Translations under genes and position numbers: made by a program
NCBI GenBank assembly: GCA_951406725.2
Contig: OX597816.1
Span: 20,026,001 to 20,090,000 of the forward strand
DNA: 64,000 nucleotides
Direction of reading: 5' to 3'
From: Octopus vulgaris
Lineage: Eukaryota
Notes under the pieces: model-generated
Databases searched by the model: none
The model's input: only the letters and a program-made list of their open reading frames with translations
Told to the model about the DNA's origin: nothing
Shown: in pieces, positions 27,185 to 64,000 of the stretch
Numbering within the stretch: position 1 is the stretch's first letter
How the letters are laid out: each line of letters begins with the position of its first letter

Positions 27185-27400
27185 TTTTTTTATTGCCCAC
27201 AGGTGGCTAACCATAGAGGGTCAAACAAGGACCAACAAAAGGATTAAGTCAATTACATCGACTCCAGTGCGTGACTGGTATTTATTTAATCGACCCCGGA
27301 ATGATGAAAGACAAAGTCGACCTCGGCAGAATATGAACTCAGAATGTAACACCGATCGAAATACCGCTAGGCATTTCGCTTGGCATGCTAACGATTCTGT
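27185..27400 (-). mobile_element. tRNA-derived SINE, family 3
   Basis: Homologous to 22290-22505 and 25248-25540. Confidence 0.8.
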
Positions 27401-37254: not shown

Positions 37255-40642
<3,388 letters not shown>

Positions 40643-43546
40643 CAGAAATACACATGCCGCAATATGCAGTCATACGCACAGATAGAAAAGGGAGGAGCCA
40701 TGGTGGAGTTGCAATGTACATCCGAGATGACCTCACGCCCCAGGTCCTGCTGTCATATTCAAACTCAGTATGTGAAACTCAAATTGTACACATAAGACAA
40801 CTGAATATCGTCATATGCACTACATATCGCCCACCAGACGCCCCAAAACACTCAGGCATGTTTGAAGACTGCCTAACAAAAATAGGAGAAGTCCTCACCA
40901 ACCTTGAACAGCACAACAGTGTATTCTTCATGGGTGACTTTAACCTCCCCAATGTGGAATGGCCTGGGGGGCAGATGCTCCCAGGGATGACACACCATCA
41001 GCAGGCACAGGTGGAGTCCCTGCTCCATCTCACAAATACCTCTTTCATGGAGCAAATAGTTCTGCAACCAACAAGGGCAGATAATATACTGGATCTCTGC
41101 TTTACAAACAATATGGATATTATCCATAATGTTAATGTGATGCCGACAATGATCTCGGATCACAACATAATAGAGCTGTCTACGTATGGAACAAAAGCCC
41201 CCGCAGACACACAGCCTATACGAAGCACCCACCATCTCTCCAACTTAAACTTTCATAAAGCCAACTGGAAGTCGATTGAGAAAGAGATCCTCAAACAGGA
41301 TTGGCCTGAATGTCTCTCCACACCGGACATAAACATGAAACACAAACACTTCATGTCCATAATACAAGCCATATGTGACAAATATGTCCCAATGTGCAGG
41401 GCCAGCACACACAAGAATAAAAACAGGATCCCTAGAGAAAGGAGGATTCTTATGAGACGACGGACAAGGATTGCAAACCGCCTGAGCAAGCACACCAAAA
41501 GTGGTGAGAAGTCTCGGCTCGAAAGAATGCTAATGGAAACTGAGAAAAGTCTACATCAGTCCCATGAAAAGGAGAGAGCAGATAAAGAAGCTTGGGTAAT
41601 AGAAAATATAAAATCAAACCCTAAAGCTTTCTTTAAGTTTGCCAAAGAGACAGCCACAGTGCACCAGAGAATAGGACCTCTCTTCCAAAAAGATGGCTCT
41701 CTCACAGGAAATCCCACGAGGATAAGTGAAATACTGAACGAACAGTTCCAAAGTGTATTCACTACACCTCTAGGACACAGGCAAGTAAACAACCCAGAAG
41801 AATTCTTTGCCACTTTACCAGCGGCCAAAGAGACAAAAATTGAGTACATCAACATCGAAGAAGATGATATCACACTAGCCATTGATGAGATTGACACAAA
41901 CTCAGCTGCTGGACCTGATGGATTCCCAGCGATCCTTCTCAAATCGTGCAAACGAGCCCTTGCAAAACCGCTACAGCTTCTTTTTCAGAGCTTTCTTGCA
42001 AGTGGTAAGCTCCCAGTCAAACTGAAAGAGGGGGTAATATGCCCTATCCATAAGGGAGGTAGCAGAGCAGATGCTAAAAATTATAGGCCTATCTCTCTGA
42101 CCTCACACATCAGCAAAGTCATGGAACGAATAGTCCGTAAGAAACTAATCATGTTCCTTGAAGAAAATGACTTACTGTCTGACACCCAGCATGGATTTCG
42201 ACCAGGTAGAGGCTGCCTAACACAGCTCCTGCAACACTATGACTGGGTGTTGAAACAGCTACTAAATGGCTCAAATGTGGATGTAATATATCTTGACTTT
42301 GCAAAAGCCTTTGATAAAGTCGACCATGGTATGATCTGTCACAAACTGCGTGGTCTCGGCATAGGCGGGAAACTTGGAGAGTGGCTGCACAACTTCCTAA
42401 AAGACAGAAAACAGGCAGTTGTGAGCAATGGAGCCACCTCCAGGGAAACGCAAATAACAAGCGGTGTCCCACAGGGCACTGTCTTGGGGCCACTGATGTT
42501 CATAGTGGCCCTTTCAGACATGCCTTCAGTTGCTACGATGACCACCCTTGCTAGCTATGCAGATGACACAAAGGTCTCCCACGCAATACAGAACCCTGAA
42601 AATATTGCGCATCTGCAACATGAGCTGGACACAATATACAGGTGGGCTGAGGACAACAACATGCAGTTTAATGCAGGTAAGTTCCAGGCCCTGCGCTACT
42701 GGCACACAAAGGTAAATGACGTGAAGACTGGATACACTGGCCCAGGAAGAATTGCAATCCCTGAGTCAAAATCAGTGCGTGACCTGGGCATTGACATGAG
42801 CAATGATGCATCTTTCCAAATGCATATTGCTAATCTGGTGATAAAATGCAGACGGCTAGCTGGATGGATTCTCCGAACTTTCAGAACAAGAGAGAAGGAG
42901 ACACTGATGGTCCTATGGAAAACATTTGTCCTCAGCCGCTTGGACTACTGCTCCCAACTTTGGTCACCACACAATATAAAACAAACAGCAGAACTCGAAG
43001 CAACTCAGAGAAGCTACACAAAGAAAATCGTCTCAATGCAAAATGTCAGCTACTGGGAAAGACTGAAGGTATTAAACCTCTTCTCCCTGGAGCGGAGGCG
43101 GGAGAGATATGCAGTAATATACATCTGGAAAATCCTGGAGGGTCTTGTCCCAAACTTTGGCATTCAAAGTTACTCCAACCGCAGAACGGGCGCCGCTGCG
43201 TGGTGCCAAGGATTCCAACATCACCATCAAAATACAGGTCCAGATACTGCAACAGCTTGGGTTTCAGAGGACCACAGCTTTTCAACATCCTCCCTAAATG
43301 CCTGAGAGACTTACATGGTGTGGATGTGGGTTTCTTTAAAACTAAACTGGATCTCTTCTTGTTGGGAGTCCCAGATGAACCTACCTCACGACAGGAGACA
43401 CGGATGCGGGCAGCAGCATCGAACTCCCTTGTTGATCAAGTGCCACGTATCAGAGGTGGATTCACAAACTAGTGTGGCTCATTCAGCGGTGGTGCCCCAG
43501 CATGGCCGCGGCCTTCGGGCTAAAACATTTTTAAGGATTTAAGGAT
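40643..43546 (+). mobile_element. 5'-truncated CR1-group LINE (family B, copy 2)
   Basis: ORF2 with partial APE and RT; tail ggtggtgccccagcatggccgc..(tttaagga)2; flanked by (TA)n. Confidence 0.92.
40654..43472 (+). CDS. LINE ORF2 (partial APE endonuclease plus RT), frameshifted near the C-terminus
   Basis: DR..HGGV, YRPP, GDFN, LDL, SDH (APE); [18 protein letters not shown] (RT); the C-terminal [18 protein letters not shown] segment lies in ORF 42846-43472. Confidence 0.9.
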
Positions 43547-43591
43547 ATACGTATATATATATATATATATTTATATATATACGTATATATA

Positions 43592-43634
<43 letters not shown>

Positions 43635-43636
43635 CG

Positions 43637-43671
<35 letters not shown>

Positions 43672-43714
43672 ATTTATATATATATATACATATATACACA
43701 CATATATACATACG

Positions 43715-43756
<42 letters not shown>

Positions 43757-43822
43757 CGTATATATATATATATTTATTAATTTTATGAATAATGTACTTT
43801 TTCGTATACGTATATATATATG
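43547..43822. repeat. Degenerate (TA)n array
   Basis: Directly visible. Confidence 0.9.
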
Positions 43823-44197
43823 TATATCAAATGAACACACTGAAGACAGTATGTTTATTCCTTAAATTTGTTGCTTTTAAATAATTTTCTTTACAAAGCA
43901 TTCGCCATGCTAATCATATTTTATTGAACATCGTATTGATGCAGTACGAATGCGACTATTTAATGTGTGCCAGATGTGAACATCAACAGTAACATATGAA
44001 GTTATCTCTAAAAGTATAATTAAGTTCTAAGTTAAAATATAATTAAATGCATCTGTTAACTCAATCTTATAAATAAACAATACAAAATCGCTTCGTATAC
44101 TTTCTATTAGCTCTACTTGTAAAGAAATTAATTATATAGGATAAAATTAGCATATCTCTAGTTACATAAATTGGCACAAATAATGAGTTGTATTTTC

Positions 44198-44925: not shown

Positions 44926-45600
44926 TATATATGTAATTTTTCATTTTTATATTTATACTAGCATTAATGACCCGTCATTGCCGGGTTATAGTGCTAGTGC
45001 ATGTTTATACGTGTATATATATATGTGTACATATTACATGTACATCTATATATATACATCTACACATAAAATACAAAATACAAAGTTATATATTGATATC
45101 GCTAGTGATAACAATACTCAAAATATATAACAGACTGGAATTGTTAGCCCGTCTCTTTTAATTTTGATCAATTGTATCTTGTCCTCACACTTGTATAGAA
45201 GTGTAGCTACATTCCAGCCTACCTCTACTTCTGGGGCGGGGGCATTTTAAATTTTTTTCCGGGACGTCCTACGTCCCAGATATAAAGGTGAAAATAAAAT
45301 ATTTCCACTTTGCAAGTTCGAGTCGAGTACTCCCTTTCACGCTCCGTTGACTCGAACCTTGCTTCTATTGTGGCGAATTTATCGCCTCTGATTAGATACT
45401 TTTCATAGTCGCACCAAGACACTTTTCGAAGGTGCTTTCCTCCATGTGATTTCTTTATTACCCACTAAGGGGCTACGAAGAATGGCGGACATAACAAAAC
45501 ATGGGGACATAGAACATTATAATTAAACTTTATGAAAATGAATTGTTAAACGAAAAAAATGATAAAATGAAAGCGATACCAACGGCCCCGTCCGTCAGCA

Positions 45601-47014
45601 TCACTTACCTGTCCTTTGTTTTTCATAGTCACTTGAATGTTCTTTGTCAATACGAATAAATTCCATATCCATTCTTACTCCGAAATACTCATCCATATTT
45701 TCCACGAATTCATCGCTCATTCTTATATCTTTCACCTCCCAATTCTCCCTTTCACACCTCCCCATATACTCACCTATGTTCTTCTTTTCAATCACAGCAT
45801 ACCTAGTCTCTCCAACATCATACCATTTATACTCTTCCATTAGACTTTTAACTTCTTTCTGTTCAGTCATAGTACAAATGTACGGCCTGGGTTCGATTTC
45901 AATCTCTTGTGTGTGTGTATTCTTTTTTTCTTTTGTTTTCTTGTTGGGGGGAGCGGGTGGGTTCAATGTCTGCATGGATAGGGTGGGACTCAGAGGGTGT
46001 GGGTGGTTTTGGGGTAGATTGGAGTTCCATATTATTTTCTTTTTTTCCACGTATTCTTCTCTTCCTCTTACTTCCAGCTTCCTTCCATTTCTGTGTATTC
46101 TCTTCCTCTGTTTCCTTCTCCTCTGGTTTCTGCTTCTCTCTCTGGTTCGGAATCCATTTCTTTCCCTGGGGGAGGGCAGAAGGCTCTTATGTGACCCCTC
46201 AGGCCACACTTGTAACAACGTGGAGCCCTGCCCTCCACCCACACTCTCATGATCACGTCTCCCAGTCTGATGCTTTCCGTCAGGTCCACCAGTACCTCGG
46301 TCTCTGCCTGTACGTTCAGCTCCACCGTTACGCCTCTCCAGCCCTCGGACTTAACCGAGGCATGGAGAATATCCACTCGTCCTCGTGGCCGCTGATCACA
46401 GCCGCCACAATCCATTCTGCCTCCACGTTTGGTGGCACTCCCTCCACCCTTATTCGTGTAATCCTCCTGTTTAAATACGTAGGTAATAGGGTTACCTTTT
46501 CTGACTTCACCGCCTTCGCCGCCATCTTCCTCGCTGCAGTCTCAGTTTTGAAATGCACAACTACGGTACCGTACTTGGATCCTCGAGTCAGAAAATCTAT
46601 TTCCTCCTCAGTTCCTCGCAGGGCCTCCCGCATCCATTCCATGGTTACAACTTCCACCCTCCTCCCTTCGCCCGCGAACACCCTGCAAACAATGGTCCTC
46701 CCATCACACCATTCCCCTCTCCTGGGTGTCGGTGATAGTTCCACCTCACCGCCTTCCCCCTTCATGCATTTCTGGTAACTTGGCAACTTGGCCACGTCGA
46801 CCCCTCTCTCTTCCGCCTTCTTGGCCACACCGGCATAGGTATAACCCAGCCTCTTTTCCAAATTCCTTGCTGCCACTTCTAGCTCTTTCTCAGACGTAGG
46901 CAGGTCTGATAAAGACTCGAAAACTCCAGCCCTCTCTTCCATCAGCTTCATTGCAATTGCCTGTTCCAGTTCCTCATCTGTCGTGGACAAGTCTGTTAGA
47001 GACTCATAGTCCAC
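45601..47014 (-). pseudogene. Unit 1 Gag/ORF1-like zinc-knuckle protein (subfamily A), frameshifted, GTG start
   Basis: Fragments 46328-47014, 46068-46415 (CYKCGLRGHIRAFC) and 45601-46242. Confidence 0.8.
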
Positions 47015-47462
47015 TTCCCTCTGTCTGACAGACCGAGAACGGCCGCCAAAACAGAAAAAGTGTAACGCGCTGAACGAGCGAAACGCGAAACCGCGTCAAC
47101 GCCGTTCAGAATCTCCACAACAACAACAACGCTTTTTGTTCCCTCTTACCGAATTTCAGGAGCCGAAAAAAACACGGATTTTTTTATTACCCACAAGGGG
47201 CCACGAAGAGGGGGACATTACAAGACGGGACATGGGGTACATAAAATAAAATAAAATATGAAGTAAAGATGAATTATATGTAATGAGATGGAACGGCTTA
47301 CGAACCCCCAACTCGCAGTTCCGTTTAAAATACAATTGTACATTTCATATATTCCAATACAATTTTACAGTTACATATATTCCAGTACAATAATTTTTAC
47401 ATGTTAACATTCAAAATACAACTTTACATCATACAATTTTACAATTAACAATTCTAATTCTT

Positions 47463-48817
47463 TTACATTAGACGCTCGTCCGTCATATAATCCAATAGAT
47501 CCATTTGGTCTATTACATCTGGTAATTTATCATACCGTACATAATGCATTATATGCATAGCATTAAATATCTTTTTTAATTTTATGTATGTCTCTTTGTC
47601 TATAATGACGCCTTTTACATCTTCACCATACAGTTTTGGGTTCACCTTCACCCTGATCAACCCTTTCTTACCTACAAGTCTCTTTTCCACTTCTGTATTC
47701 TTGATATACATCACAACTGCCTTCAAGTTTTTCCCTGTAGGCCTTCTTCCATATTTACACGATTCCAATTGTTCGTTCACTCTTGTCTCCCATTCTTGTT
47801 CAAACTCTGTCCTTGGCCGCTCTCTCTCCTTCTCTTTTACTTCCTGTCCTTTGTATGTTTTCTCTTCTCTCTCTTCTGCTATCTTACTTTTGATTTTTTT
47901 CTTTTTTTGGAGATCTTTCGGTGGTGATTCCACCCTTGATCTCTTCCTATCTTCTGTTTTTTCCTCTTCTGTTTTTTCCTCTTCTGCACTTGCTCGTTCT
48001 TCCTCATTTAACTGCTCCTCCATTCGTGTTTCCTCCGCTTTCGCTTCCTCCACACACGCATCTTTACACTCCTCTATCACAACTTCTGGTGCTTTTGTTT
48101 TTTCCCGCGGGCACACATCCTTCATGTGGCCCCTCGATTTACAATTATAGCAGATTGGGGTCTTCCCTCTACCACAACTCGGAGCCGTGTTTCGTCAGGG
48201 TAGACCAACTCCTCCGGGATGTTGTACAGGTCTCGCACGGTTATGTGTGCCAGAACCTGCACCGTATATCCCCACCACTTAACCTCTGCTGACTTCTCCA
48301 CCTTCAGTACCTCCACATCATCCTTGCAGTTAAACAGCACCGCCGCCAGCAACCTTTCCATATTAAATTCGGGTGAGATTCTATTGATTCTCATCCTCAC
48401 TGCTCTCCTTCCGCAGTAACTTGGTAGCAAAGTCCACTTATCCGACTTCAAAATTCTTGTTGCATTCTTTTTTGCCTCCTCTTCTGTTTTAAAATACACC
48501 ACCACCGTGGCATACTTCCTTCCTCTTTTGAAAAATGCGGGTTCACCCTCAATTTCCTTCAGACACCTTTCTACTTCTTCCATTTCCGCTACTTCAATTT
48601 TTTTCGACTCCACGCACCACGTCCTGTACGTTATAGTACGCTTCTCTGCACTGCTTTCCTCCTCCTCGGACGGTGTGACTATCACACAGTCACCCTCCCT
48701 CTTTAAACTGTCGAAATACTTCTGTAAAGTCTTCTGTTCGACCATCACCTCCTCCATTTCCAGTTCACCGGCAACCAGGCCTCTGCCTGCCGCTCGCGCG
48801 TAAGTCTGCTCTTGCAT
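47463..48817 (-). CDS. Unit 2 Gag/ORF1-like protein (divergent subfamily C), one frameshift
   Basis: LLPSYCGRRAVRMRI..RVVVEGRP; across the frameshift at about 48155 it reads CYNCKSRGHMKDVC (CCHC). Confidence 0.8.
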
Positions 48818-49144
48818 TTTCAAGAAAAAAAATTATTCCACGTCCTCCAACGAACTCGAACTCACAACGTCTTTACTCGAAATAAACACACCAGAATAAA
48901 CACACCAGAATAACTCCAACTAACTAACTCAAAAAAAACGCGACCGAACTCAAAATTGCTGTTTCATTATATCGGGAGCCGAAAAAAACACGTATTTCTT
49001 TATTACCCACTAAGGGGCTACGAAGAGTGCCGGACATCACAAAACATGGGGACATAGAACATTATAATTAAACTTTATGAACATGAATTGTTAAACGAAA
49101 AAATGATAAAATGAAAGTGATACCAACGGCCCCGTCCGTCAGCA

Positions 49145-50564
49145 TCACTTACCTGTCCTTTGTTTTTCATAGTCACTTGAATGTTCTTTGTCAATACGAA
49201 TAAATTCCATATCCATTCTTACTCCGAAATACTCATCCATATTTTCCACGAATTCATCGCTCATTCTTATATCTTTCACCTCCCAATTCTCCCTTTCACA
49301 CCTCCCCATAAACTCACCTATGTTCTTTTTTTCAATCACAGCATACCTAGTCTCTCCAACATCATACCGTTTATACTCTTCCATTAGACTTTTAACTTCC
49401 CTCTGTTCAGTCATAGTACAAATGTACGGCCTGGGTTCGATTTCAATCTCTTGTGTGTGTGTATTCTTTTTTTTTCTTTTGTTTTCTTGTTGGGGGGGAG
49501 CGGGTGGGTTCAATGTCTGCATGGATAGGGTGGGACTCAGAGGGTGTGGGAGGTTTTGGGGTAGATTGGAGTTCCATATTATTTTCTTTTTTTCCACATA
49601 TTCTTCTCTTCCTCTTACTTCCAGCTTCCTTCCATTTCTGTGTATTCTCTTCCTCTGTTTCCTTCTCCTCTGGTTTCTGCTTCTCTCTCTCTGGTTCGGG
49701 ATCCATTTCTTTCCCTGGGGGAGGGCAGAAGGCTCTTATGTGACCCCTCAGGCCACACTTGTAACAACGTGGAGCCCTGCCCTCCACCCACACTCTCATG
49801 ATCACTTCTCCCAGTCTGATGCTTTCCGTCAGGTCCACCAGTACCTCGGTCTCTGCCTGTACGTTCAGCTCCACTGTTACGCCTCTCCAGCCCTCCGACT
49901 TAACCGAGGCATGGAGAATATCCACTTCGTCCTCGTGGCCGCTGATCACAGCCGCCACAATCCATTCTGCCTCCACGTTTGGTGGCACTCCCTCCACCCT
50001 TATTCGTGTAATCCTCCTGTTTAAATACGTAGGTAACAGTGTTACCTTTTCCGACTTCACCGCCTTCGCTGCCATCTTCCTCGCTGCAGATTCACTTTTA
50101 AAGTGCACAACTACGGTCCCGTACTTGGATCCTCGAGTCAGAAAATTTATTTCCTCCTCAGTTCTTCGCAGGGCTTCCTCTATCCATTCCATGGATACAA
50201 CTTCTACCCTCTTCCTTTCGTTTGCGCACACCCTGTAAACAATGGTCCTCTTGTCATACCATTCTTTTCTCCTGGGTGTCGGTGATAGTTCCACCTCACC
50301 GCTTTCCTTTTCCATGTATTTCTGGTAACTTGGCAACTTGGCCATGTCGACCCCTTTCTCTTCCGCCTTCTTGGTTACACCGGCATAGGTATAACCCAGC
50401 TTCTGATCCATTTTCCTCACTGCTATTTCTAGCTCCTCCTCAGATGTAGACAAGTCTGATAAAGACTCGAAAACTCCAGCCTTTTCCTCCATCAGCTTCA
50501 CTGCAATTGCCTGTTCCAGTTCCTCATCCGTCGTGGACAAGTCTGTTAGAGACTCATAGTCCAT
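49145..50564 (-). CDS. Unit 3 Gag/ORF1-like protein (subfamily A), one homopolymer frameshift
   Basis: 373-aa ORF with CCHC plus C-terminal segment in ORF 49145-49597. Confidence 0.85.
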
Positions 50565-50899
50565 TTCCTTCTGTCTGACAGACCGAAAACGGCCGCCAAA
50601 ACAGAAAAAGTGTAACGCGCTGAACGAGCGAAACGCGAAACCGCGTCAACGCCGTTCAGAATTTCCACAACAACAACAACGCTTTTTGTTCTTTTTTACC
50701 GAATTTTCAGGAGCCGAAAAAAAAACACGGAGCCGAAAAAAAGCCCGTATTTCTTTATTACCCACTAAGGGGCTACGAAGAGTGCCGGACATAACAAAAC
50801 ATGGGGACATAGAACATTATAATTAAACTGTATGAACATGAAGTGTTAAACGAAAAAATGATAAAATGAAAGCGATACCAACGGCCCCGTCCGTCAGCA

Positions 50900-52315
50900 T
50901 CACTTACCTGTCCTTTGTTTTTCATAGTCACTTGAATGTTCTTTGCCAATACGAATAAATTCCATATCCATTCTTACTCCGAAATACTCATTCATATTTT
51001 CCACGAATTCATCGCTCATTCTTATATCTTTCACCTCCCAATTCTCCCTTTCACACCTCCCCATAAACTCACCTATGTTCTTTTTTTCAATCACAGCATA
51101 CCTAGTCTCTCCAACATCATACCGTTTATACTCTTCCATTAGACTTTTAATTTCCTCTGTTCAGTCATAGTACAAATGTACGGCCTGGGTTCGATTTCAA
51201 TCTCTTGTGTGTGTGTATTCTTTTTTTTCTTTTGTTTTCTTGTTGGGGGGGAGCGGGTGGGTTCAATTTCTGCATGGATAGGGTGGGACTCAGAGGGTGT
51301 GGGAGGTTTTGGGGTAGATTGGAGTTCCATATTATTTTCTTTTTTTCCACATATTCTTCTCTTCCTCTTACTTCCAGCTTCCTTCCATTTCTGTGTATTC
51401 TCTTCCTCTGTTTCCTTCTCCTCTGGTTTCTGCTTCTCTCTCTCTGGTTCGGGATCCATTTCTTTCCCTGGGGGAGGGCAGAAGGCTCTTATGTGACCCC
51501 TCAGGCCACACTTGTAACAACGTGGAGCCCTGCCCTCCACCCACACTCTCATGATCACTTCTCCCAGTCTGATGCTTTCCGTCAGGTCCACCAGTACCTC
51601 GGTCTCTGCCTGTACGTTCAGCTCCACTGTTACGCCTCTCCAGCCCTCGGACTTAACCGAGGCATGGAGAATATCCACTTCGTCCTCGTGGCCGCTGATC
51701 ACAGCCGCCACAATCCATTCTGCCTCCACGTTTGGTGGCACTCCCTCCACCCTTATTCGTGTAATCCTCCTGTTTAAATACGTAGGTAACAGTGTTACCT
51801 TTTCCGACTTCACCGCCTTCGCTGCCGTCTTCCTCGCTACAGATTCACTTTTAAAGTGCACAACTACGGTCCCGTACTTGGATCCTCGAGTCAGAAAATT
51901 TATTTCCTCCTCAGTTCTTCGCAGGGCTTCCTCTATCCATTCCATGGTTACAACTTCTACCCTCTTCCTTTCGTTTGCGAACACCCTGTAAACAATGGTC
52001 CTCTTATCATACCATTCTTTCTCCTGGGTGTCGGTGATAGTTCCACCTCACCGCTTTCCTTTTTCATGTATTTCTGGTAACTTGGCAACTTGGCCATGTC
52101 GACCCCTTTTCTTCCGCCTTCTTGGTTACACCGGCATAGGTATAACCCAGCTTCTCTTCCAATTCCCTTGCTGCCGTTTCTAGCTCCTTCTCAGACGTAG
52201 GCAAGTCTGATAAAGACTCGAAAACTCCAGCCTTTTCTTCCATCAGCTTCATTGCAATTGCCTGTTCCAGTTCCTCATCTGTCGTGGACAAGTCTGTTAA
52301 AGACTCATAGTCCAT
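50900..52315 (-). CDS. Unit 4 Gag/ORF1-like protein (subfamily A), frameshifted
   Basis: Fragments 52064-52315, 51139-51984 and 50900-51139. Confidence 0.8.
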
Positions 52316-52643
52316 TTCCTTCTGTCTGACAGACCGAAAACGGCCGCCAAAACAGAAAAAGTGTAACGCGCTGAACGAGCGAAACGCGAAACCGCGTCAA
52401 CGCCGTTCAGAATTTCCACAACAACAACAACGCTTTCTGTTCTTTTTTACCGAATTTTACAGAGCGCAAAAAAACGTATGATTTTTTATTACCCACAAGG
52501 GGCCAACGAAGAGGGGGACATTACAAGACATGGGGACATGGAACATCACAATTACATATATATGAGCAAAATGGAATATGAAAAATGATATATGAGAGCG
52601 ATACCGACGGCCCCATCCGCCAGCATCACTTATCTGTCCTTCT

Positions 52644-53972
52644 TCACCCATTTTCAATTAGTATTCCTGTTTCAACTATCACAACATTCGTTTTTCTTTT
52701 AGCCCTCTCTATCCATTCATCTTTCATTTCCACTGACTTCCAACACACACCCTCTTCCTCAAACCTTGTCGCCAATATACCCGTATCCTCACTATCCACA
52801 GCCGTGTAGCTCCAATCTTCGTGTTCGTACCACTTGGTTAACACCAGTTTTTTAACGTTTTGTATGTCTTTCCCTTGTATAACACATAAAAAATGGGTCT
52901 TGGGACTTTCTTTGCTCTGTGTGTCTGTTTTTGTTTTTCTTGTAGGCGGGGAGTGGGTGGAATCACTGTTTGCAGGGGAAGGATGGGACTCCAAGGGTAT
53001 GGGTGGTGTCGGGGTGGGTTGGGGTTTCGCACAGTTTTTCTTTTTCTTTCTCTTTCTCTTTGTTCCCACTTCTTTCCACTCTTGTTGCATCTCCTCTTCT
53101 TCTGTCGTTTCCTTCTCTGTTTGTTTCTGTTTATTTTCTTCCTCTCCTGAGGCTTCCTCAACGCTTTCCTTTTCTTTTTCCTTTGGTGGGGGAGGGCAGT
53201 AGGCTCTTATGTGACCCCTTTGGCCACACTTGTAGCACCTGGGCGCCCTACCCTCCACCCACACTCTCATAATAATATTTCCAGTTTTTATGCTGTCCGT
53301 AATCCTCTCTATAACATCCGCCTCCGCTTGAACGTTCATAACTAGTGTGGCACCTCTCACGCCTTCATACTTCATAATGGCGTGGAGGATGTCCACTTTA
53401 TCTTCATTTCCTTTTATAACCGCAGCCGTTATTAATTCGCCCTCTAGGTGTGGAGGTATTCCCTCCACCCTAATTCTAGTTGTCCGCCTATTCAGATACG
53501 AGGGTAACAAGTAAATCTTTTCTGTACTCACCACCTTGGCTGCTACATTCCTGGCTGCTTTTTCGCTTTTAAATTGCACCGTTATCGTTCCGTATTGTAA
53601 TCCTTTTGTCATGTACACAATTTCCTCTCCTGTCTGCTTGAGAGCCTCTTCAATTGCTTCCATGTTGATTACTTCCATCTTTCTACCTCCATTCATAAAT
53701 ACTTTATATTTAATGGTTCTACGATGGAACCAGTCTCCGCGCCCTACTGGATGCAGCAGCTCGACTTCACCGTTCTCGTCCTCCTTCACAAACTCCTGGA
53801 GGCCCGCCAACTTAGCCAAGTCTATCTCTCTTTCCGTTGACTTCTTCGTTACACCTGCGTAGGTGCCTTCCATCTTTTTCACCGCCAACTCCTCCTCAGA
53901 TGTCGATACTTCCGTCGAAATTTCAGAGTAAATTCTCCCTTCCATCTCCTCCGCTTGATGGAGGCGGCTCAT
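52644..53972 (-). CDS. Unit 5 Gag/ORF1-like protein (subfamily B, ..IENG C-terminus), intact 442 aa
   Basis: Uninterrupted from MSRLHQ; CYKCGQRGHIRAYC; KRKRKKKK NLS-like motif. Confidence 0.88.
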   Translation of the reverse strand: MSRLHQAEEMEGRIYSEISTEVSTSEEELAVKKMEGTYAGVTKKSTEREIDLAKLAGLQEFVKEDENGEVELLHPVGRGDWFHRRTIKYKVFMNGGRKMEVINMEAIEEALKQTGEEIVYMTKGLQYGTITVQFKSEKAARNVAAKVVSTEKIYLLPSYLNRRTTRIRVEGIPPHLEGELITAAVIKGNEDKVDILHAIMKYEGVRGATLVMNVQAEADVIERITDSIKTGNIIMRVWVEGRAPRCYKCGQRGHIRAYCPPPPKEKEKESVEEASGEEENKQKQTEKETTEEEEMQQEWKEVGTKRKRKKKKNCAKPQPTPTPPIPLESHPSPANSDSTHSPPTRKTKTDTQSKESPKTHFLCVIQGKDIQNVKKLVLTKWYEHEDWSYTAVDSEDTGILATRFEEEGVCWKSVEMKDEWIERAKRKTNVVIVETGILIENG

Positions 53973-54317
53973 AGACGCCTCCAGCCGAAAAAACGGCCTC
54001 CCGAACCGAAAAAGTGTAACGCGCAGAACCAGTGAGACGCAAAACCGCATCAACTACGTTCAAAATTTTACAACAACAACCATTCACTTTTTGTTCTTTT
54101 TTCTTTTTACCGAATTCCACAGAGAGCAAAAAACACAGAGCCGAAAAAACCACATGATTCTTTATTACCCACAAGGGGCCAACGAAGAGGGGGACATTAC
54201 AAGACATGGGGACATGGAACATCACAATTACATATATATGAGCAAATGGAATATGAAAATGATATATGAGAGCGATACCGACGGCCCCATCCGCCAGCAT
54301 CACTTATCTGTCCTTCT

Positions 54318-55648
54318 TCACCCATTTTCAATTAGTATTCCTGTTTCACCTATCACAACATTCGTTTTTCTTTTAGCCCTCTCTATCCATTCATCTTTCA
54401 TTTCCACTGACTTCCAACACACACCCTCTTCCTCAAACCTTGTCGCCAATATACCCGTATCCTCACTATCCACAGCCGTGTAGCTCCAATCTTCGTGTTC
54501 GTACCACTTGGTTAACACCAGTTTTTTAACGTTTTGTATGTCTTTCCCTTGTATAACACATAAAAAATGGGTCTTGGGACTTTCTTTGCTCTGTGTGTCT
54601 GTTTTTGTTTTTCTTGTAGGCGGGGAGTGGGTGGAATCACTGTTTGCAGGGGAAGGATGGGACTCCAAGGGTATGGGTGGTGTCGGGGTGGGTTGGGGTT
54701 TCGCACAGTTTTTCTTTTTCTTTCTCTTTCTCTTTGTTCCCACTTCTTTCCACTCTTGTTGCATCTCCTCTTCTTCTGTCGTTTCCTTCTCTGTTTGTTT
54801 CTGTTTATTTTCTTCCTCTCCTGAGGCTTCCTCAACGCTTTCCTTTTCTTTTTCCTTTGGTGGGGGAGGGCAGTAGGCTCTTATGTGACCCCTTTGGCCA
54901 CACTTGTAGCACCTGGGCGCCCTACCCTCCACCCACACTCTCATAATAATATTTCCAGTTTTTATGCTGTCCGTAATCCTCTCTATAACATCCGCCTCCG
55001 CTTGAACGTTCATAACTAGTGTGGCACCTCTCACGCCTTCATACTTCATAATGGCGTGGAGGATGTCCACTTTATCTTCATTTCCTTTTATAACCGCAGC
55101 CGTTATTAATTCGCCCTCTAGGTGTGGAGGTATTCCCTCCACCCTAATTCCTAGTTGTCCGCCTATTCAGATACGAGGGTAACAAGTAAATCTTTTCTGT
55201 ACTCACCACCTTGGCTGCTACATTCCTGGCTGCTTTTTTCGCTTTTAAATTGCACCGTTATCGTTCCGTATTGTAATCCTTTTGTCATGTACACAATTTC
55301 CTCTCCTGTCTGCTTGAGAGCCTCTTCAATTGCTTCCATGTTGATTACTTCCATCTTTCTACCTCCATTCATAAATACTTTATATTTAATGGTTCTACGA
55401 TGGAACCAGTCTCCGCGCCCTACTGGATGCAGCAGCTCGACTTCACCGTTCTCGTCCTCCTTCACAAACTCCTGGAGGCCCGCCAACTTAGCCAAGTCTA
55501 TCTCTCTTTCCGTTGACTTCTTCGTTACACCTGCGTAGGTGCCTTCCATCTTTTTCACCGCCAACTCCTCCTCAGATGTCGATACTTCCGTCGAAATTTC
55601 AGAGTAAATTCTCCCTTCCATCTCCTCCGCTTGATGGAGGCGGCTCAT
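54318..55648 (-). CDS. Unit 6 Gag/ORF1-like protein (subfamily B, IENG), frameshifted
   Basis: Near-identical to unit 5, with 1-nt insertions at about 55150-55240. Confidence 0.8.
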
Positions 55649-55986
55649 AGACGCCTCCAGCCGAAAAACGGCCTCCCGAACCGAAAAAGTGTAACGCGCA
55701 GAACCAGTGAGACGCGAAACCGCATCAACGCCGTTCAGAATTTCCACAACAACAACAACGCTTTTTGTTCTTTTTTACCGAATTTCAGGAGCCGAAAAAA
55801 AACACGACCTTTTTCTCTACATACTTTATAGACAATTGATTCTTTATTACCCACAAGGGGCCAACGAAGAGGGGGACATTACAAGACATGGGGACATAGA
55901 ACATTATAATTAAATTTATGAAGGATGAATTGTTACATGAAAAAATGATAATATGAAAGCGATGCTAAAGGCCCCATCCGTTAGCA

Positions 55987-57356
55987 TCACTTACCTGTCC
56001 TTTGGTTTTCGCCGTCACTCCAATTTCCAATAATAAAACCGATTCTATTCTCCATTCTCACTTCAAAACGATTCTCCATATTTTTCACGGATTCATCACT
56101 CAGACTCATCTCTTCCACCTCCCAATTCTCCCTTTCGCACCTTCTCATAAACTCATCTATTCGCTCCTTTTCAATCACTGCACACCTGGTCACACCTGAA
56201 TCGCACCATGTATACCCTTCCATTACCCTTTTAACCTCTTCCTGTTCTGTCATAATACAAATGTTCGGCCTGGGTTCGCTTTCAGTCTCTTGTCTGTCTG
56301 TGTTAATTTTTTTTTGTTTTCTTGTTGGAGGGGAGTGGGTGGAATCACTGTTTGCAGGGGAAGGATGGGACTCCAAGGGTATGGGTGGTGTCGGGGTGGG
56401 TTGGGGCTTCGCACAGTTTTTCTTTTTCCTTCTTTTTTTCTCTTTGTTCCCCCTTCTTTCCACTCTTGTTGCATCTCCTCTTCTTCTGTCGTTTCCTTCT
56501 CTGTTTGTTTCTGTTTATTTTCTTCCTCTCTTGAGGCTTCCTCAACGCTTTCCTTTTCTTTTTCCTTTGGTGGGGGAGGGCAGTAGGCTCTTATGTGACC
56601 CCTCTGGCCACACTTGTAGCACCTGGGCGCCCTACCCTCCACCCACACTCTCATAATAATATTTCCAGTTTTTATGCTGTCCGTAATCCTCTCTATAACA
56701 TCCGCCTCCGTTTGAATGTTCATAACTAGTGTGGAACCTCTCACGCCTTCATACTTCATAATGGCGTGGAGGATGTCCACTTTATCTTCATTTCCTTTTA
56801 TAACCGCAGCCGTTATTAATTCGCCCTCTAGGTGTGGAGGTATTCCCTCCACCCTAATTCTGGTTGTCCGCCTATTCAGATACGAGGGTAACAAGTAAAT
56901 CTTTTCTGTACTCACCACCTTGGCTGCTACATTCCTGGCTGCTTTTTCACTTTTAAATTGCACCGTTATGGTTCCGTATTGTAATCCTTTTGTCATGTAC
57001 ACAATTTCCTCTCCTGTCTGCTTGAGAGCCTCTTCAATTGCTTCCATGTTAATTACTTCCATCTTTCTACCTCCATTCATAAATACTTTATATTTAATGG
57101 TTCTACGATGGAACCAGTCTCCGCGCCCTACTGGATTCAGCAGCTCGACTTCACCGTTCTCGTCCTCCTTCACAAACTCCTGGAGGCCCGCCAACTTAGC
57201 CAGGTCTATCTCTCTTTCCGTTGACTTCTTCGTTACACCTGCGTAGGTGCCTTCCATCTTTTTCACCGCCAACTCCTCCTCAGATGTCGATACTTCCGTC
57301 GAAATTTCAGAGTAATTTCTCCCTTCCATCTCCTCCGCTTGATGTAGGCGGCTCAT
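55987..57356 (-). CDS. Unit 7 Gag/ORF1-like protein (subfamily B, ..RTGK C-terminus), frameshifted in homopolymers
   Basis: ORFs 56250-57455 and 55987-56463. Confidence 0.82.
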
Positions 57357-57694
57357 AGTCGCCTCAGACCGAAAAACGGCCTCCCGAACCGAAAAAGTGT
57401 AACGCGCAGAACCAGTGAGACGCGAAACCGCATCAACGCCGTTCAGAATTTCCACAACAACAACAACGCTTTTTGTTCTTTTTTACCGAATTTCAGGAGC
57501 CGAAAAAAACACGACCTTTTTTCTCTACATACTTTATAGACAATTGATTCTTTATTACCCACAAGGGGCCAACGAAGAGGGGGACATTACAAGACATGGG
57601 GACATAGAACATTATAATTAAATTTATGAAGGATGAATTGTTACATGAAAAAATGATAATATGAAAGCGATGCTAAAGGCCCCATCCGTTAGCA

Positions 57695-59058
57695 TCACTT
57701 ACCTGTCCTTTGGTTTTCGCCGTCACTCCAATTTCCAATAATAAAACCGATATTCTCCATTCTCACTTCAAAACGATTCTCCATATTTTTCACGGATTCA
57801 TCACTCAGACTCATCTCTTCCACCTCCCAATTCTCCCTTTCGCACCTTCTCATAAACTCATCTATTCGCTCCTTTTCAATCACTGCACACCTGGTCACAC
57901 CTGAATCGCACCATGTATACCCTTCCATTACCCTTTTAACCTCTTCCTGTTCTGTCATAATACAAATGTTCGGCCTGGGTTCGCTTTCAGTCTCTTGTCT
58001 GTCTGTGTTAATTTTTTTTTGTTTTCTTGTTGGAGGGAGTGGGTGGAATCACTGTTTGCAGGGGAAGGATGGGACTCCAAGGGTATGGGTGGTGTCGGGG
58101 TGGGTTGGGGCTTCGCACAGTTTTTCTTTTTCCTTCTTTTTCTCTTTGTTCCCCCTTCTTTCCACTCTTGTTGCATCTCCTCTTCTTCTGTCGTTTCCTT
58201 CTCTGTTTGTTTCTGTTTATTTTCTTCCTCTCTTGAGGCTTCCTCAACGCTTTCCTTTTCTTTTTCCTTTGGTGGGGGAGGGCAGTAGGCTCTTATGTGA
58301 CCCCTCTGGCCACACTTGTAGCACCTGGGCGCCCTACCCTCCACCCACACTCTCATAATAATATTTCCAGTTTTTATGCTGTCCGTAATCCTCTCTATAA
58401 CATCCGCCTCCGTTTGAATGTTCATAACTAGTGTGGAACCTCTCACGCCTTCATACTTCATAATGGCGTGGAGGATGTCCACTTTATCTTCATTTCCTTT
58501 TATAACCGCAGCCGTTATTAATTCGCCCTCTAGGTGTGGAGGTATTCCCTCCACCCTAATTCTGGTTGTCCGCCTATTCAGATACGAGGGTAACAAGTAA
58601 ATCTTTTCTGTACTCACCACCTTGGCTGCTACATTCCTGGCTGCTTTTTCACTTTTAAATTGCACCGTTATGGTTCCGTATTGTAATCCTTTTGTCATGT
58701 ACACAATTTCCTCTCCTGTCTGCTTGAGAGCCTCTTCAATTGCTTCCATGTTAATTACTTCCATCTTTCTACCTCCATTCATAAATACTTTATATTTAAT
58801 GGTTCTACGATGGAACCAGTCTCCGCGCCCTACTGGATTCAGCAGCTCGACTTCACCGTTCTCGTCCTCCTTCACAAACTCCTGGAGGCCCGCCAACTTA
58901 GCCAGGTCTATCTCTCTTTCCGTTGACTTCTTCGTTACACCTGCGTAGGTGCCTTCCATCTTTTTCACCGCCAACTCCTCCTCAGATGTCGATACTTCCG
59001 TCGAAATTTCAGAGTAATTTCTCCCTTCCATCTCCTCCGCTTGATGTAGGCGGCTCAT
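57695..59058 (-). CDS. Unit 8 Gag/ORF1-like protein (subfamily B, RTGK), one frameshift
   Basis: ORFs 57955-59325 and 57695-57958. Confidence 0.82.
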
Positions 59059-59407
59059 AGTCGCCTCAGACCGAAAAACGGCCTCCCGAACCGAAAAAGT
59101 GTAACGCGCAGAACCAGTGAGACGCGAAACCGCATCAACTACGTTCAAAATTTTACAACAACAACCATTCACTTTTTGTTCTTTTTTCTTTTTACCGAAT
59201 TCCACAGAGAGCCGAAAAAAAACACGACCTTTTTTCTCTACATACTTTATAGACAATTGATTCTTTATTACCCACAAGGGGCCAACGAAGAGGGGGACAT
59301 TACAAGACATGGGGACATAGAACATTATAATTAAATTTATGAAGGATGAATTGTTACATGAAAAAATGATAATATGAAAGCGATGCTAAAGGCCCCATCC
59401 GTTAGCA

Positions 59408-60772
59408 TCACTTACCTGTCCTTTGGTTTTCGCCGTCACTCCAATTTCCAATAATAAAACCGATATTCTCCATTCTCACTTCAAAACGATCCTCCATATT
59501 TTTCACGGATTCATCACTCAGACTCATCTCTTCCACCTCCCAATTCTCCCTTTCGCACCTTCTCATAAACTCATCTATTCGCTCCTTTTCAATCACTGCA
59601 CACCTGGTCACACCTGAATCGCACCATGTATACCCTTCCATTACCCTTTTAACCTCTTCCTGTTCTGTCATAATACAAATGTTCGGCCTGGGTTCGCTTT
59701 CAGTCTCTTGTCTGTCTGTGTTAATTTTTTTTTGTTTTCTTGTTGGAGGGGAGTGGGTGGAATCACTGTTTGCAGGGGAAGGATGGGACTCCAAGGGTAT
59801 GGGTGGTGTCGGGGTGGGTTGGGGCTTCGCACAGTTTTTCTTTTTCCTTCTTTTTCTCTTTGTTCCCCCTTCTTTCCACTCTTGTTGCATCTCCTCTTCT
59901 TCTGTCGTTTCCTTCTCTGTTTGTTTCTGTTTATTTTCTTCCTCTCTTGAGGCTTCCTCAACGCTTTCCTTTTCTTTTTCCTTTGGTGGGGGAGGGCAGT
60001 AGGCTCTTATGTGACCCCTCTGGCCACACTTGTAGCACCTGGGCGCCCTACCCTCCACCCACACTCTCATAATAATATTTCCAGTTTTTATGCTGTCCGT
60101 AATCCTCTCTATAACATCCGCCTCCGTTTGAATGTTCATAACTAGTGTGGCACCTCTCACGCCTTCATACTTCATAATGGCGTGGAGGATGTCCACTTTA
60201 TCTTCATTTCCTTTTATAACCGCAGCCGTTATTAATTCGCCCTCTAGGTGTGGAGGTATTCCCTCCACCCTAATTCTGGTTGTCCGCCTATTCAGATACG
60301 AAGGTAACAAGTAAATCTTTTCTGTACTCACCACCTTGGCTGCTACATTCCTGGCTGCTTTTTCGCTTTTAAATTGCACCGTTATGGTTCCGTATTGTAA
60401 TCCTTTTGTCATGTACACAATTTCCTCTCCTGTCTGCTTGAGAGCCTCTTCAATTGCTTCCATGTTGATTACTTCCATCTTTCTACCTCCATTCATAAAT
60501 ACTTTATATTTAATGGTTCTACGATGGAACCAGTCTCCGCGCCCTACTGGATTCAGCAGCTCGACTTCACCGTTCTCGTCCTCCTTCACAAACTCCTGGA
60601 GGCCCGCCAACTTAGCCAGGTCTATCTCTCTTTCCGTTGACTTCTTCGTTACACCTGCGTAGGTGCCTTCCATCTTTTTCACCGCCAACTCCTCCTCAGA
60701 TGTCGATACTTCCGTCGAAATTTCAGAGTAATTTCTCCCTTCCATCTCCTCCGCTTGATGGAGGCGGCTCAT
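59408..60772 (-). CDS. Unit 9 Gag/ORF1-like protein (subfamily B, RTGK), intact 454 aa
   Basis: Uninterrupted ORF with RRM-like region, CCHC knuckle and basic patch. Confidence 0.88.
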   Translation of the reverse strand: MSRLHQAEEMEGRNYSEISTEVSTSEEELAVKKMEGTYAGVTKKSTEREIDLAKLAGLQEFVKEDENGEVELLNPVGRGDWFHRRTIKYKVFMNGGRKMEVINMEAIEEALKQTGEEIVYMTKGLQYGTITVQFKSEKAARNVAAKVVSTEKIYLLPSYLNRRTTRIRVEGIPPHLEGELITAAVIKGNEDKVDILHAIMKYEGVRGATLVMNIQTEADVIERITDSIKTGNIIMRVWVEGRAPRCYKCGQRGHIRAYCPPPPKEKEKESVEEASREEENKQKQTEKETTEEEEMQQEWKEGGTKRKRRKKKNCAKPQPTPTPPIPLESHPSPANSDSTHSPPTRKQKKINTDRQETESEPRPNICIMTEQEEVKRVMEGYTWCDSGVTRCAVIEKERIDEFMRRCERENWEVEEMSLSDESVKNMEDRFEVRMENIGFIIGNWSDGENQRTGK

Positions 60773-61110
60773 AGTCGCCTCAGACCGAAAACGGCCTCCC
60801 GAACCGAAAAAGTGTAACGCGCAGAACCAGTGAGACGCGAAACCGCATCAACGCCGTTCAGAATTTCCACAACAACAACAACGCTTTTTGTTCTTTTTTA
60901 CCGAATTTCAGGAGCCAAAAAAAAACACGACCTTTTTTCTCTACATACTTTATAGACAATTGATTCTTTATTACCCACAAGGGGCCAACGAAGAGGGGGA
61001 CATTACAAGACATGGGGACATAGAACATTATAATTAAATTTATGAAGGATGAATTGTTACATGAAAAAATGATAATATGAAAGCGATGCTAAAGGCCCCA
61101 TCCGTTAGCA

Positions 61111-62482
61111 TCACTTACCTGTCCTTTGGTTTTCGCCGTCACTCCAATTTCCAATAATAAAACCTGATATTCTCCATTCTCACTTCAAAACGATTCTCCA
61201 TATTTTTCACGGATTCATCTACTCAGACTCATCTCTTCCACCTCCCAATTCTCCCTTTCGCACCTTCTCATCAAAACTCATCTATTCGCTCCTTTTCAAT
61301 CACTGCACACCTGGTCACACCTGAATCGCACCATGTATACCCTTCCATTACCCTTTTAACCTCTTCCTGTTCTGTCATAATACATAAATGTTCGGCCTGG
61401 GTTCACTTTCAGTCTCTTGTCTGTCTGTGTTAATTTTTTTTTTTTTTCTTGCTAGGAGGGGAGTGGGTGGAATCACTGTTTGCAGGGGAAGGATGGGACC
61501 TCAAGGGTATGGGTGGTGTCGGGGTGGGTTGGGGCTTCGCACAGTTTTTCTTTTTCCTTCTTTTTCTCTTTGTTCCCCCTTCTTTCCACTCTTGTTGCAT
61601 CTCCTCTTCTTCTGTCGTTTCCTTCTCTGTTTGTTTCTGTTTATTTTTTCTTCCTCTCTTGAGGCTTCCTCAACGCTTTCCTTTTCTTTTTTCCTTTGGT
61701 GGGGGAGGGCAGTAGGCTCTTATGTGACCCCTCTGGCCACACTTGTAGCACCTGGGCGCCCTACCCTCCACCCACACTCTCATAATATTTCCAGTTTTTA
61801 TGCTGTCCGTAATCCTCTCTATAACATCCGCCTCCGCTTGAATGTTCATAACTAGTGTGGCACCTCTCACGCCTTCATACTTCATAATGGCGTGGAGGAT
61901 GTCCACTTTATCTTCATTTCCTTTTATAACCGCAGCCGTTATTAATTCGCCCTCTAGGTGTGGAGGTATTCCCTCCACCCTAATTCTGGTTGTCCGCCTA
62001 TTCAGATACGAGGGTAACAAGTAAATCTTTTCTGTACTCACCACCTTGGCTGCTACATTCCTGGCTGCTTTTTCACTTTTAAATTGCACCGTTATGGTTC
62101 CGTATTGTAATCCTTTTGTCATGTACACAATTTCCTCTCCTGTCTGCTTGAGAGCCTCTTCAATTGCTTCCATGTTAATTACTTCCATCTTTCTACCTCC
62201 ATTCATAAATACTTTATATTTAATGGTTCTACGATGGAACCAGTCTCCGCGCCCTACTGGATTCAGCAGCTCGACTTCACCGTTCTCGTCCTCCTTCACA
62301 AACTCCTGGAGGCCCGCCAACTTAGCCAGGTCTATCTCTCTTTCCGTTGACTTCTTCGTTACACCTGCGTAGGTGCCTTCCATCTTTTTCACCGCCAACT
62401 CCTCCTCAGATGTCGATACTTCCGTCGAAATTTCAGAGTAATTTCTCCCTTCCATCTCCTCCGCTTGATGTAGGCGGCTCAT
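61111..62482 (-). pseudogene. Unit 10 Gag/ORF1-like protein (subfamily B, RTGK), multiple frameshifts
   Basis: ORF 61670-62644 carries the CCHC; several indels downstream. Confidence 0.75.
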
Positions 62483-62829
62483 AGTCGCCTCAGACCGAAA
62501 AACGGCCTCCCGAACCGAAAAAGTGTAACGCGCAGAACCAGTGAGACGCGAAACCGCATCAACTATGTTCAAAATTTTACAACAACAACCATTCACTTTT
62601 TGTTCTTTTTTACCGAATTTCACAGAGAGCAAAAAACACAACAATCCTGCTTACCGACTCAAACTGATTTCTTTATTACCCACTAGGGGCCAACATAGAG
62701 GGGACGTTACAAGACATTGGGGACATGGAACATCACAATTACATATATATGAGCAAAATGGAATATGAAAATGATATATGAGAGTGATACCGACGGCCCC
62801 ATCCGCCAGCATCACTTATCTGTCCTTCT

Positions 62830-64000
62830 TCACCCATTTCCAATTAGTATTCCTGTTTTCACTATCACAACATTCGTTTTTCTTTTAGCCCTCTCTATCC
62901 ATTCATCTTTCATTTCCACTGACTTCCAACACACACCCTCTTCCTCAAACCTTGTCGCCAATATACCCGTATCATCACTATCCACAGCCGTGTAGCTCCA
63001 ATCTTCGTGTTCGTACCACTTGGTTAACACCAGTTTTTTAACCTCTTCCTGTTCTGTCATAATACAAACGTTCGGCCTGGGTTCGCTTTCAGTCTCTTTG
63101 TCTGTCTGTGTTAATTTTTTTTTGTTTTCTTGTTGGAGGGGAGCGGGTGGGTTCACTGTCTGCAGGGGAAGGATGGGATTCAGAGGGTGCGGGTGGTGTT
63201 GGGGCGGGGTTGGGGCTTCGCACATTTTTTTCTTTTTCTTTCTTTTTCTCTTTTTTCTGCCTTCTTCCCACTCTTGTTGCATCTCCTCTTCTTCTGTCGT
63301 TTCCTTCTCTGTTTGTTTCTGTTTATTTTCTTCCTCTCTTGAGGCTTCCTCAACGCTTTCCTTTTCTTTTTTCCTTTGGTGGGGGAGGGCAGTAGGCTCT
63401 TATGTGACCCCTCTGGCCACACTTGTAGCACCTGGGCGCCCTACCCTCCACCCACACTCTCATAATAATATTTCCAGTTTTTATGCTGTCCGTAATCCTC
63501 TCTATAACATCCGCCTCCGTTTGAATGTTCATAACTAGTGTGGCACCTCTCACGCCTTCATACTTCATAATGGCGTGGAGGATGTCCACTTTATCTTCAT
63601 TTCCTTTTATAACCGCAGCCGTTATTAATTCGCCCTCTAGGTGTGGAGGTATTCCCTCCACCCTAATTCTGGTTGTCCGCCTATTCAGATACGAGGGTAA
63701 CAAGTAAATCTTTTCTGTACTCACCACCTTGGCTGCTACATTCCTGGCTGCTTTTTCACTTTTAAATTGCACCGTTATCGTTCCGTATTGTAATCCTTTT
63801 GTCATGTACACAATTTCCTCTCCTGTCTGCTTGGAGAGCCTCTTCAATTGCTTCCATGTTAATTACTTCCATCTTTCTACCTCCATTCATAAATACTTTA
63901 TATTTAATGGTTCTACGATGGAACCAGTCTCCGCGCCCTACTGGATTCAGCAGCTCGACTTCACCGTTCTCGTCCTCCTTCACAAACTCCTGGAGGCCCG
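62830..64000 (-). CDS. Unit 11 Gag/ORF1-like protein (chimeric C-terminus), cut by the window edge
   Basis: Fragments 63762-63983, 63350-63847 and 62830-63282. Confidence 0.78.

Follow-up and report, generated by a model that had tools for sequence, protein, structure and literature searches.

A likely self-targeting, HAL1-like array of ORF1-only elements in the Octopus vulgaris genome

A 64,000-nt stretch of the Octopus vulgaris genome (assembly GCA_951406725.2, contig OX597816.1, positions 20,026,001 to 20,090,000 of the forward strand), referred to here as the window, contains a tandem array of repeated units that is likely a self-targeting, HAL1-like array, later amplified by recombination. 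The array comprises at least 11 units placed head to tail on the minus strand, each 1.68-1.82 kb long, and extends from position 45447 past 64000, where the window ends. A unit of ~1.7 kb consists of a 5' untranslated region (UTR) of ~160-180 nt, a single open reading frame (ORF1) of about 440-455 amino acids and a short 3' UTR (about 150-290 nt) that ends in AATAAA-GAAAT(C/A) without poly(A); neither an endonuclease nor a reverse transcriptase is encoded. A tail of ~60 nt is common to the array units and to a dispersed repeat with a tRNA head, which we take to be a short interspersed element (SINE). The units form three families: A (units 1, 3 and 4), B (unit 2) and C (units 5-11, mosaic). 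A T-rich motif marks the 5' end in 10/10 units whose start falls in the window, an exact 18-bp repeat flanks the divergent unit 2, and at its left edge the array abuts an older relative. With moderate confidence we propose that the units are mobilised in trans and inserted with a bias towards the 5' end of resident copies, with duplication of ~18 bp, and that unequal exchange followed. The components of the array are:

45447-47158, minus strand: body of unit 1 (family A), with tail, 3' UTR, frameshifted ORF1 and 5' UTR
47159-47176, minus strand: 5'-end motif of unit 1, the downstream copy of the 18-bp repeat flanking unit 2
47177-48974, minus strand: unit 2 (family B), 45-51% identical in nucleotides (global alignment) and 28-30% in amino acids to the others
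48928-48945, minus strand: degenerate terminal motif of unit 2 itself, GGTCGCG-T8-GAG, like the unit 7 terminus in 13/14 nt
48946-48974, minus strand: 29-nt 5' extension of unit 2, present nowhere else in the window
48975-48992, minus strand: upstream copy of the exact 18-bp repeat, likely a target-site duplication (TSD)
48993-50729, minus strand: unit 3 (family A), inner motif at 50711-50729
50730-50747, minus strand: outer motif copy, first doubled junction
50748-52479, minus strand: unit 4 (family A), variant motif at 52460-52476
52480-54137, minus strand: unit 5 (family C), intact ORF1 at 52644-53972, variant motif at 54124-54137
54138-54154, minus strand: outer motif copy of the second doubled junction, which contigs from three further runs cover
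54155-55806, minus strand: unit 6 (family C body, standard 5' end)
55807-55837, minus strand: 31-nt spacer between tail and motif, recurring as 32 nt at 57514-57545, 59227-59258 and 60930-60961
55838-62640, minus strand: units 7-10 with spacers, a mosaic subfamily 98-100% identical, intact ORF1 in unit 9 (59408-60772)
62641-62665, minus strand: distinct 25-nt spacer in front of unit 10
62666-64000, minus strand: unit 11, cut by the window end

The motif was located at 47160-47176 and 48976-48992, and twice in tandem at 50711-50729 with 50730-50747 and at 54124-54137 with 54138-54154. These positions confirm what an earlier note on this DNA had given for the starts of the units, unit 2 included, and for both doublings. 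The motif occurs in at least three forms, units 4, 5 and 10 deviating from the standard one. A loose pattern (YGYG-T6-10-S) gave 10 matches on the minus strand of the array against 0.065 expected (at most one in 200 Markov resamples), and a strict pattern (T6-10-CGGCTC) eight versus 0; in the whole window one further loose match lies outside the array (3769), and the plus strand has none. Because the units are homologous these counts are not independent, and the informative case is unit 2.

The 18-mers that flank unit 2 (47159-47176 and 48975-48992) are identical, and the former begins at the first base past its tail. Past the upstream 18-mer come the 29 unique nt and then the degenerate motif resembling the start of unit 7. 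Outside the 18-mer the 5' UTR of unit 2 gave no blastn alignment with family A, in agreement with the earlier description of it as otherwise unrelated; comparison of the whole unit with units 3 and 5 yielded the last ~60 nt (82-93%), one 60-nt piece of the ORF (73%) and short pieces with E > 0.01. Removal of unit 2 together with one repeat leaves a junction of the standard form between two family A units. In the simplest reading of these sequences, unit 2 would have entered a family A copy at its 5' end and duplicated the first 18 bp of that copy. Since the 18-mer copy is best explained as a duplication, conservation of the motif in unit 2 is not evidence for a promoter, and unit 2 conceals a third motif doubling. 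The idea that the motif is an insertion target is thus supported by the exact repeat around unit 2, and also by the older kin copy on which the array abuts.

A different account takes the motif as the conserved core promoter of otherwise unrelated 5' UTRs, with a chance dimer growing as a satellite by unequal exchange and conversion and so making the doublings. A related motif indeed starts all families, CpG observed/expected is 1.6-2.2 in the 5' UTRs versus 0.6-0.8 in the ORFs, the units are mosaic and the second doubling appears inherited; moreover, ingi and L1Tc share 5' extremities with promoter activity (PMC4758252). However, an identity of 18/18 between barely alignable families is too exact for old conservation, the family A variants themselves being different, and recombination does not produce the many distinct spacers found in other sequencing runs. 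We therefore hold this account to be quite improbable. A promoter role of the motif is in itself plausible, judging from its terminal position, the degenerate second motif in unit 2 and the CpG-rich 5' UTR.

The left flank of the array is occupied by a further feature:

45100-45446 (left limit approximate), minus strand: decayed older relative from the ORF1 family, "unit 0", which meets the tail of unit 1 at an internal point of its own

Unit 0 was matched with a hidden Markov model (alignment A3) at 45151-45333 (E 3.7e-12) and 45303-45404 (E 1.2e-6), contains one stop and a frameshift, and is without its 3' part and tail. It is the only ORF1 remnant in 1-45446 and has the orientation of the array; the chance of a random site landing in it in that orientation is estimated, from this one window, at ~0.4% (350 bp in 45 kb, one of two strands). 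The array thus lies against kin of its own, a decayed relative on the same strand, and this suggests a preference for kin extending beyond the motif. The leftmost tail, that of unit 1, is followed by the ORF1 remnant and not by the motif; therefore the motif belongs to the element and not to a host target. Double insertion at a host target, known from R1 arrays and SINEU-3, would make the motif a piece of host DNA caught between copies; it has precedents in tandem copies that sandwich a TSD (10.1101/158386, PMC4494074). In such a case the last tail should precede the motif, yet it precedes the ORF1 remnant, and units 3 and 5 carry an inner copy of their own, which makes this alternative most improbable. 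The flank was also considered as an RNA-gene target, given its strong fold (z -4.3), and this was rejected since the flank is an ORF1 remnant.

According to the mechanism that we favour, the motif would be at once the 5' terminus of the ORF1-only elements and the preferred landing site of new copies. An unseen autonomous long interspersed element (LINE), probably of the L1/Tx1 type, would recognise the tail and provide endonuclease and reverse transcriptase in trans. The first nick would fall at or slightly upstream of the 5' end of the resident copy, and the second just after CGGCTC(C). It is just after this sequence that units 2, 3, 5 and 8 depart from the standard 5' end, as a recurrent second-strand break would give. 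Pairing of the new copy's own motif with the duplicated motif would result in a single motif, and end-to-end joining in a doubled one; the pairing step can be compared with R2, whose RNA retains upstream target sequence (PMC6895275). The 25-32-nt spacers would be 5' extensions of the kind seen in unit 2 and comparable to the 31-42 nt of SINEU (PMC4494074), and doubled or spaced junctions would then be copied by recombination or in RNA, so that most would no longer be flanked by their own duplication.

Of the 11 junctions, five lie in the range covered by the earlier note (47155-54160); among the other six, the leftmost is without motif, four share the 31/32-nt spacer and one has the 25-nt spacer, so that in these last five tail and motif are separated. 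When the sequence after each tail was compared site by site with that before each 5' end, unit 2 had the exact 18 nt in both places, units 7-9 had 28-44 nt of their common spacer, and the remaining six units agreed over 0-2 nt. The outer copy at 50730-50747 differs from the downstream copy of unit 3 at two positions, both within the first 5 nt, and that at 54138-54154 differs from the downstream flank of unit 5 at 5/21 positions; therefore the doublings are not clean duplications of the present sites. Hence a TSD is the best reading of the exact 18 bp of unit 2, and the interpretation of the doublings as TSDs fails site by site, the second doubling being apparently inherited.

Several observations weigh against self-insertion. 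The motif duplication is perfect in only 1/10 units; it is imperfect in units 3 and 5, with the differences just given, absent from units 1, 4, 6 and 10, and replaced by the shared spacer in units 7-9. The tail-spacer-motif junctions (5/10 in the window) are not predicted by a nick at the first base of the motif, and the sequences after the tails vary, with no strict cleavage sequence visible. In at least three contigs of another sequencing run (X1) the tail gives way to a T-rich sequence that is unrelated; the SINE carrying this tail occurs dispersed and has no motif after it. No partner with a second open reading frame (ORF2) was found in the JGI metagenome scans or the word-index protein search. 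Finally, 10/10 5' ends are complete or nearly so, which is also predicted by end-to-end template jumping.

In template jumping the reverse transcriptase, on reaching the 5' end of one RNA, would pass to the 3' end of the next and so build concatemers with no targeting, the motif being the transcription start and the spacers and outer motifs upstream starts or captured short RNAs. Such a process agrees with the complete 5' ends and precise tails of 10/10 junctions, with spacers of 0-32 nt and with the interleaving of families. LINE reverse transcriptases switch template ends without homology (PMC6895275), and SINEU copies mobilised by Tx1 bear 5' extensions of 31 and 42 nt (PMC4494074). It leaves unexplained, however, the exact family A 18 nt ahead of unit 2's own motif, the four junctions that break after CGGCTC(C) and the position of the array against old kin. 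As an explanation of the whole array it is unlikely; it may explain the spacer junctions, and could operate alongside self-insertion.

The three spacers tested match only their own junctions within the window and are not copies of the neighbour's tail, and neither Rfam nor ARAGORN detected an RNA gene at or near the junctions. The 5' tag of HeT-A is a copy of the 3' end of the upstream neighbour. The HeT-A-like tag suggested in the earlier note found no counterpart here, the extra 5' pieces not being such copies and poly(A) being absent. A telomeric array of this type, built of gag-only elements added to the chromosome end with sacrificial 5' tags, would have a gag-like ORF only, a head-to-tail order in one orientation, 3' ends toward single-copy-looking DNA and the oldest copy innermost, all of which are seen. 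The nature of the extra 5' pieces and the 3' ends without poly(A) speak against it, as do 3' UTRs that are not unusually long, the presence of a TSD-like repeat and the octopod telomere, reported as TTAGGG (PMC6160780, PMC13218726), of which the window has no tandem copies; we regard it as very improbable. Spacer 55807-55837 can form a 6-bp hairpin in which the version of another run (X2) changes a G-U pair to G-C; its folding, at z -1.25, lacks significance. The 25-nt spacer and the unit 2 extension match over 7 nt, which was discarded as not significant (E 5.4), and an origin of the spacers from spliced leaders or piRNAs received no support from any analysis made.

The later history of the array may be read from its family C units. 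Units 7-10 have their first ~1.1 kb in common with units 5-6 (99%), and differ from them in the last ~500 nt, where they resemble family A (~80%); unit 11 is mosaic in yet another way. Unequal exchange would give such mosaics, as well as the common spacer and the 98-100% identity of units 7-10. The C-terminus of ORF1 and the 3' UTR are exchanged between units as one module.

Contigs from four of 24 listed runs (X1, X2, X7 and X13) were aligned to 50680-54220; these are assembled contigs and not reads, and counts from them are lower bounds. Contigs with the variant letters at 54150-54154 end 25-37 nt away in X1, X2 and X7 and hence span the seam of the second doubling, which therefore appears to be an inherited junction; in X7 its outer copy reads as the standard motif. 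A bridge of 31 letters at this doubling was found only in X1, on condition that two entries with the same depth belong to a single contig. The first doubling has no confirmation among the contig matches listed. Homopolymer lengths are unreliable in the assembly, an extra T at 52017 being present in most of the contig depth of three runs and in nearly all of the fourth, and because of these errors an argument from T-run length (7 versus 9) was dropped. It could accordingly be supposed that the doublings are assembly errors, given the homopolymer indels in the window, the lack of listed matches for the first doubling and evidence that comes from contigs only. At either doubling, however, the paired copies are not identical, and X1, X2 and X7 contigs reach 25-37 nt across the second seam, so that such errors are scarcely credible as the cause.

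The same contigs hold junctions of other forms. X13 has two short spacers, of 3 and 8 nt, each with GGT at its end, and two tails attached further in, one about 13 nt into the motif and one within an ORF, near 51564. In X2 the 32-nt spacer of the window recurs in a 25-nt form, and one tail is attached about 100 nt into the UTR. A junction whose spacer measures ~30 nt occurs in X1 and X7. From this variety it follows that junctions formed repeatedly, mostly at or near the 5' end and not at one base. In two junctions of these runs, at 52380 and 52465, the tail meets GCTC with nothing in between. One of them lies within the motif and the other ~100 nt into the UTR; the latter is at high depth in X2, which suggests an amplified variant that lacks the motif. 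X2 contigs also have, again at high depth, a 35-nt insertion where family A ORF1 starts (52307-52310). The depth of long X1 contigs is about 1350 for family A and 40-55 for family C; depth is not copy number, and family A looks much more abundant. The depth of X7, presumed to be an RNA run, is uneven and was not taken as evidence for transcription.

The standard motif starts with CGTGTTTT, which fits the YGTGTTYY element. At direct junctions this start lies only 6-8 nt past the AATAAA hexamer, closer than usual. The YGTGTTYY element has been described downstream of AATAAA (PMC1539018), and the similar start of the motif behind this hexamer may serve as a lead only. It is doubtful, though conceivable, that one 18-bp word serves as transcript start, as endonuclease target and as GU-rich finisher of the neighbour's RNA, letting read-through RNA pair with the target. 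If so, families only ~30% alike in protein would have in common a landing pad that renews itself, and would assemble into polar arrays able to persist for long; these might lie in heterochromatin or at centromeres, like the clusters of Zepp in algae.

Copies of the SINE whose 3' end matches the tail of the units lie at 25236-25545, 27172-27428, 22281-22508, 10294-10395 and 11150-11236. Two insertions have direct repeats:

25414-25490, minus strand: 5'-truncated SINE tail piece inside the head of another SINE copy, with 15-bp direct repeats, one mismatch (25414-25428, 25476-25490)
27172-27428, minus strand: SINE copy with a related tail and exact 12-bp direct repeats (27172-27183, 27417-27428)

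These represent 2/4 of the tail insertions examined, the other two having no clear duplication. The duplications of 12 and 15 bp suggest that the mobilising enzyme makes repeats of such size. With the 18 bp of unit 2 the TSD-like repeats are of three sizes and the junction positions vary; duplications made by LINEs with an apurinic endonuclease (APE) are typically 10-20 bp (PMC6895275). The tail piece at 25414-25490 is another case of nesting in kin. At 52516, at least eight X1 and at least 27 X13 contigs agree with the tail over no more than its final ~37 nt; they represent another family, possibly the autonomous partner. Folding of the tail is not significant (z -0.1 to -1.7 for five tails), and a similar terminal hairpin is formed in three.

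With Pfam, ORF1 gave only a sub-threshold zf-CCHC match and none to Transposase_22; it does not conform to the mammalian L1-type ORF1 (coiled coil, single RRM, C-terminal domain; Transposase_22). The AlphaFold model of its core (pLDDT 93.7) has two predicted RRM-like domains and a CCHC knuckle, and its best Foldseek matches are tandem-RRM proteins (E 5e-6, TM 0.3-0.4). A type I layout is compatible with Jockey/I-type clades. As modelled, the layout of ORF1 (RRM plus CCHC) would be of type I and also compatible with Tx1 (PMC5203782). An exhaustive profile search with the ORF core found 521 proteins at E up to 0.001; 10 were looked up, of which eight are named, all from Octopus or Argonauta. Three word-index protein searches found no relatives, and none among longer ORF2-fused forms, which is weak evidence, and the JGI metagenome scans contained no related locus; two pattern matches there (L001, L002) were unrelated microbial DNA and were dropped. 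In public gene predictions, pieces of ORF1 appear joined to proteins of the WD40, LDL-receptor, astacin and zinc-finger kinds (P0062, P0075, P0107 and P0144); these fusions are probably annotation artefacts due to old, dispersed copies.

The window also contains long (TA)n tracts, dispersed SINE-like repeats and two LINE copies that bear a reverse transcriptase and do not share the tail of the units:

35124-36995, minus strand: LINE copy 1
40654-43305, plus strand: LINE copy 2

A 1.7-kb duplication (97%) of the 3' half of a LINE is found at 38405-40129 and 42109-43827, with TA tracts bounding each copy; it may have arisen in the assembly. The TA tracts at 29597, 33877, 37255 and 39844 measure 0.5-1.2 kb.

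ORF1-only derivatives, nesting and tandems sandwiching a TSD are already known. If correct, the self-insertion proposed here would mean that an animal element preferring its own 5' terminus provides a simple route from transposon to satellite with kilobase units. It would also be a safe-haven strategy independent of host repeats, in which the chain renews its own landing site, and would account for an octopod repeat that lacks annotation, is apparently abundant and contaminates gene models with fragments of its ORF1. The literature searched contains no description of the element, and Repbase or the repeat library of PMC13282606 may hold the family.

Several known systems come close to the array. 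HAL1 is a non-autonomous LINE derivative of repeated independent origin that codes only for ORF1p (PMC5753468). Both lack endonuclease and reverse transcriptase, but HAL1 is mammalian and derived from L1, whereas the array has two predicted RRMs and a CCHC knuckle in its ORF1, no Transposase_22, no poly(A) and a head-to-tail order. Zepp and ZeppL, of the L1 clade in green algae, form tandem clusters by nested insertion into existing copies (PMC8226300), to which unit 2 between family A units and unit 1 on old kin may be likened. Zepp is autonomous, however, and its clusters, one per chromosome, lie at the centromere and consist for the most part of 5'-truncated 3' ends, while the array has complete units with ORF1 alone, the joins lying at the very 5' end. 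The Tx1/SINEU elements of crocodilians prefer other repeats as target, make tandem insertions that sandwich a TSD, have 31-42-nt 5' extensions and involve trans-mobilised partners (PMC4494074); their targets are other transposons, snRNA genes or microsatellites and not their own 5' end. For O. vulgaris, 13 recently active L1-Tx1 families have been listed (PMC13282606). In the R1 array of Drosophila a dimer arose by repeated insertion at the regenerated target, followed by unequal exchange (10.1101/158386); its junction is 33 nt of host ribosomal DNA, whereas that of the array is the terminus of the element itself, which the outer flank does not have. HeT-A, like the array, is gag-only (gag-like in the array), head to tail and of single orientation (PMC5537684), but it has poly(A), a long promoter-bearing 3' UTR and a telomeric position, none of which is shown for the array. 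The array resembles HAL1 in coding content, Zepp in nesting and the R1 and SINEU tandems in the logic of its junctions, and departs from each of them in a defining feature.

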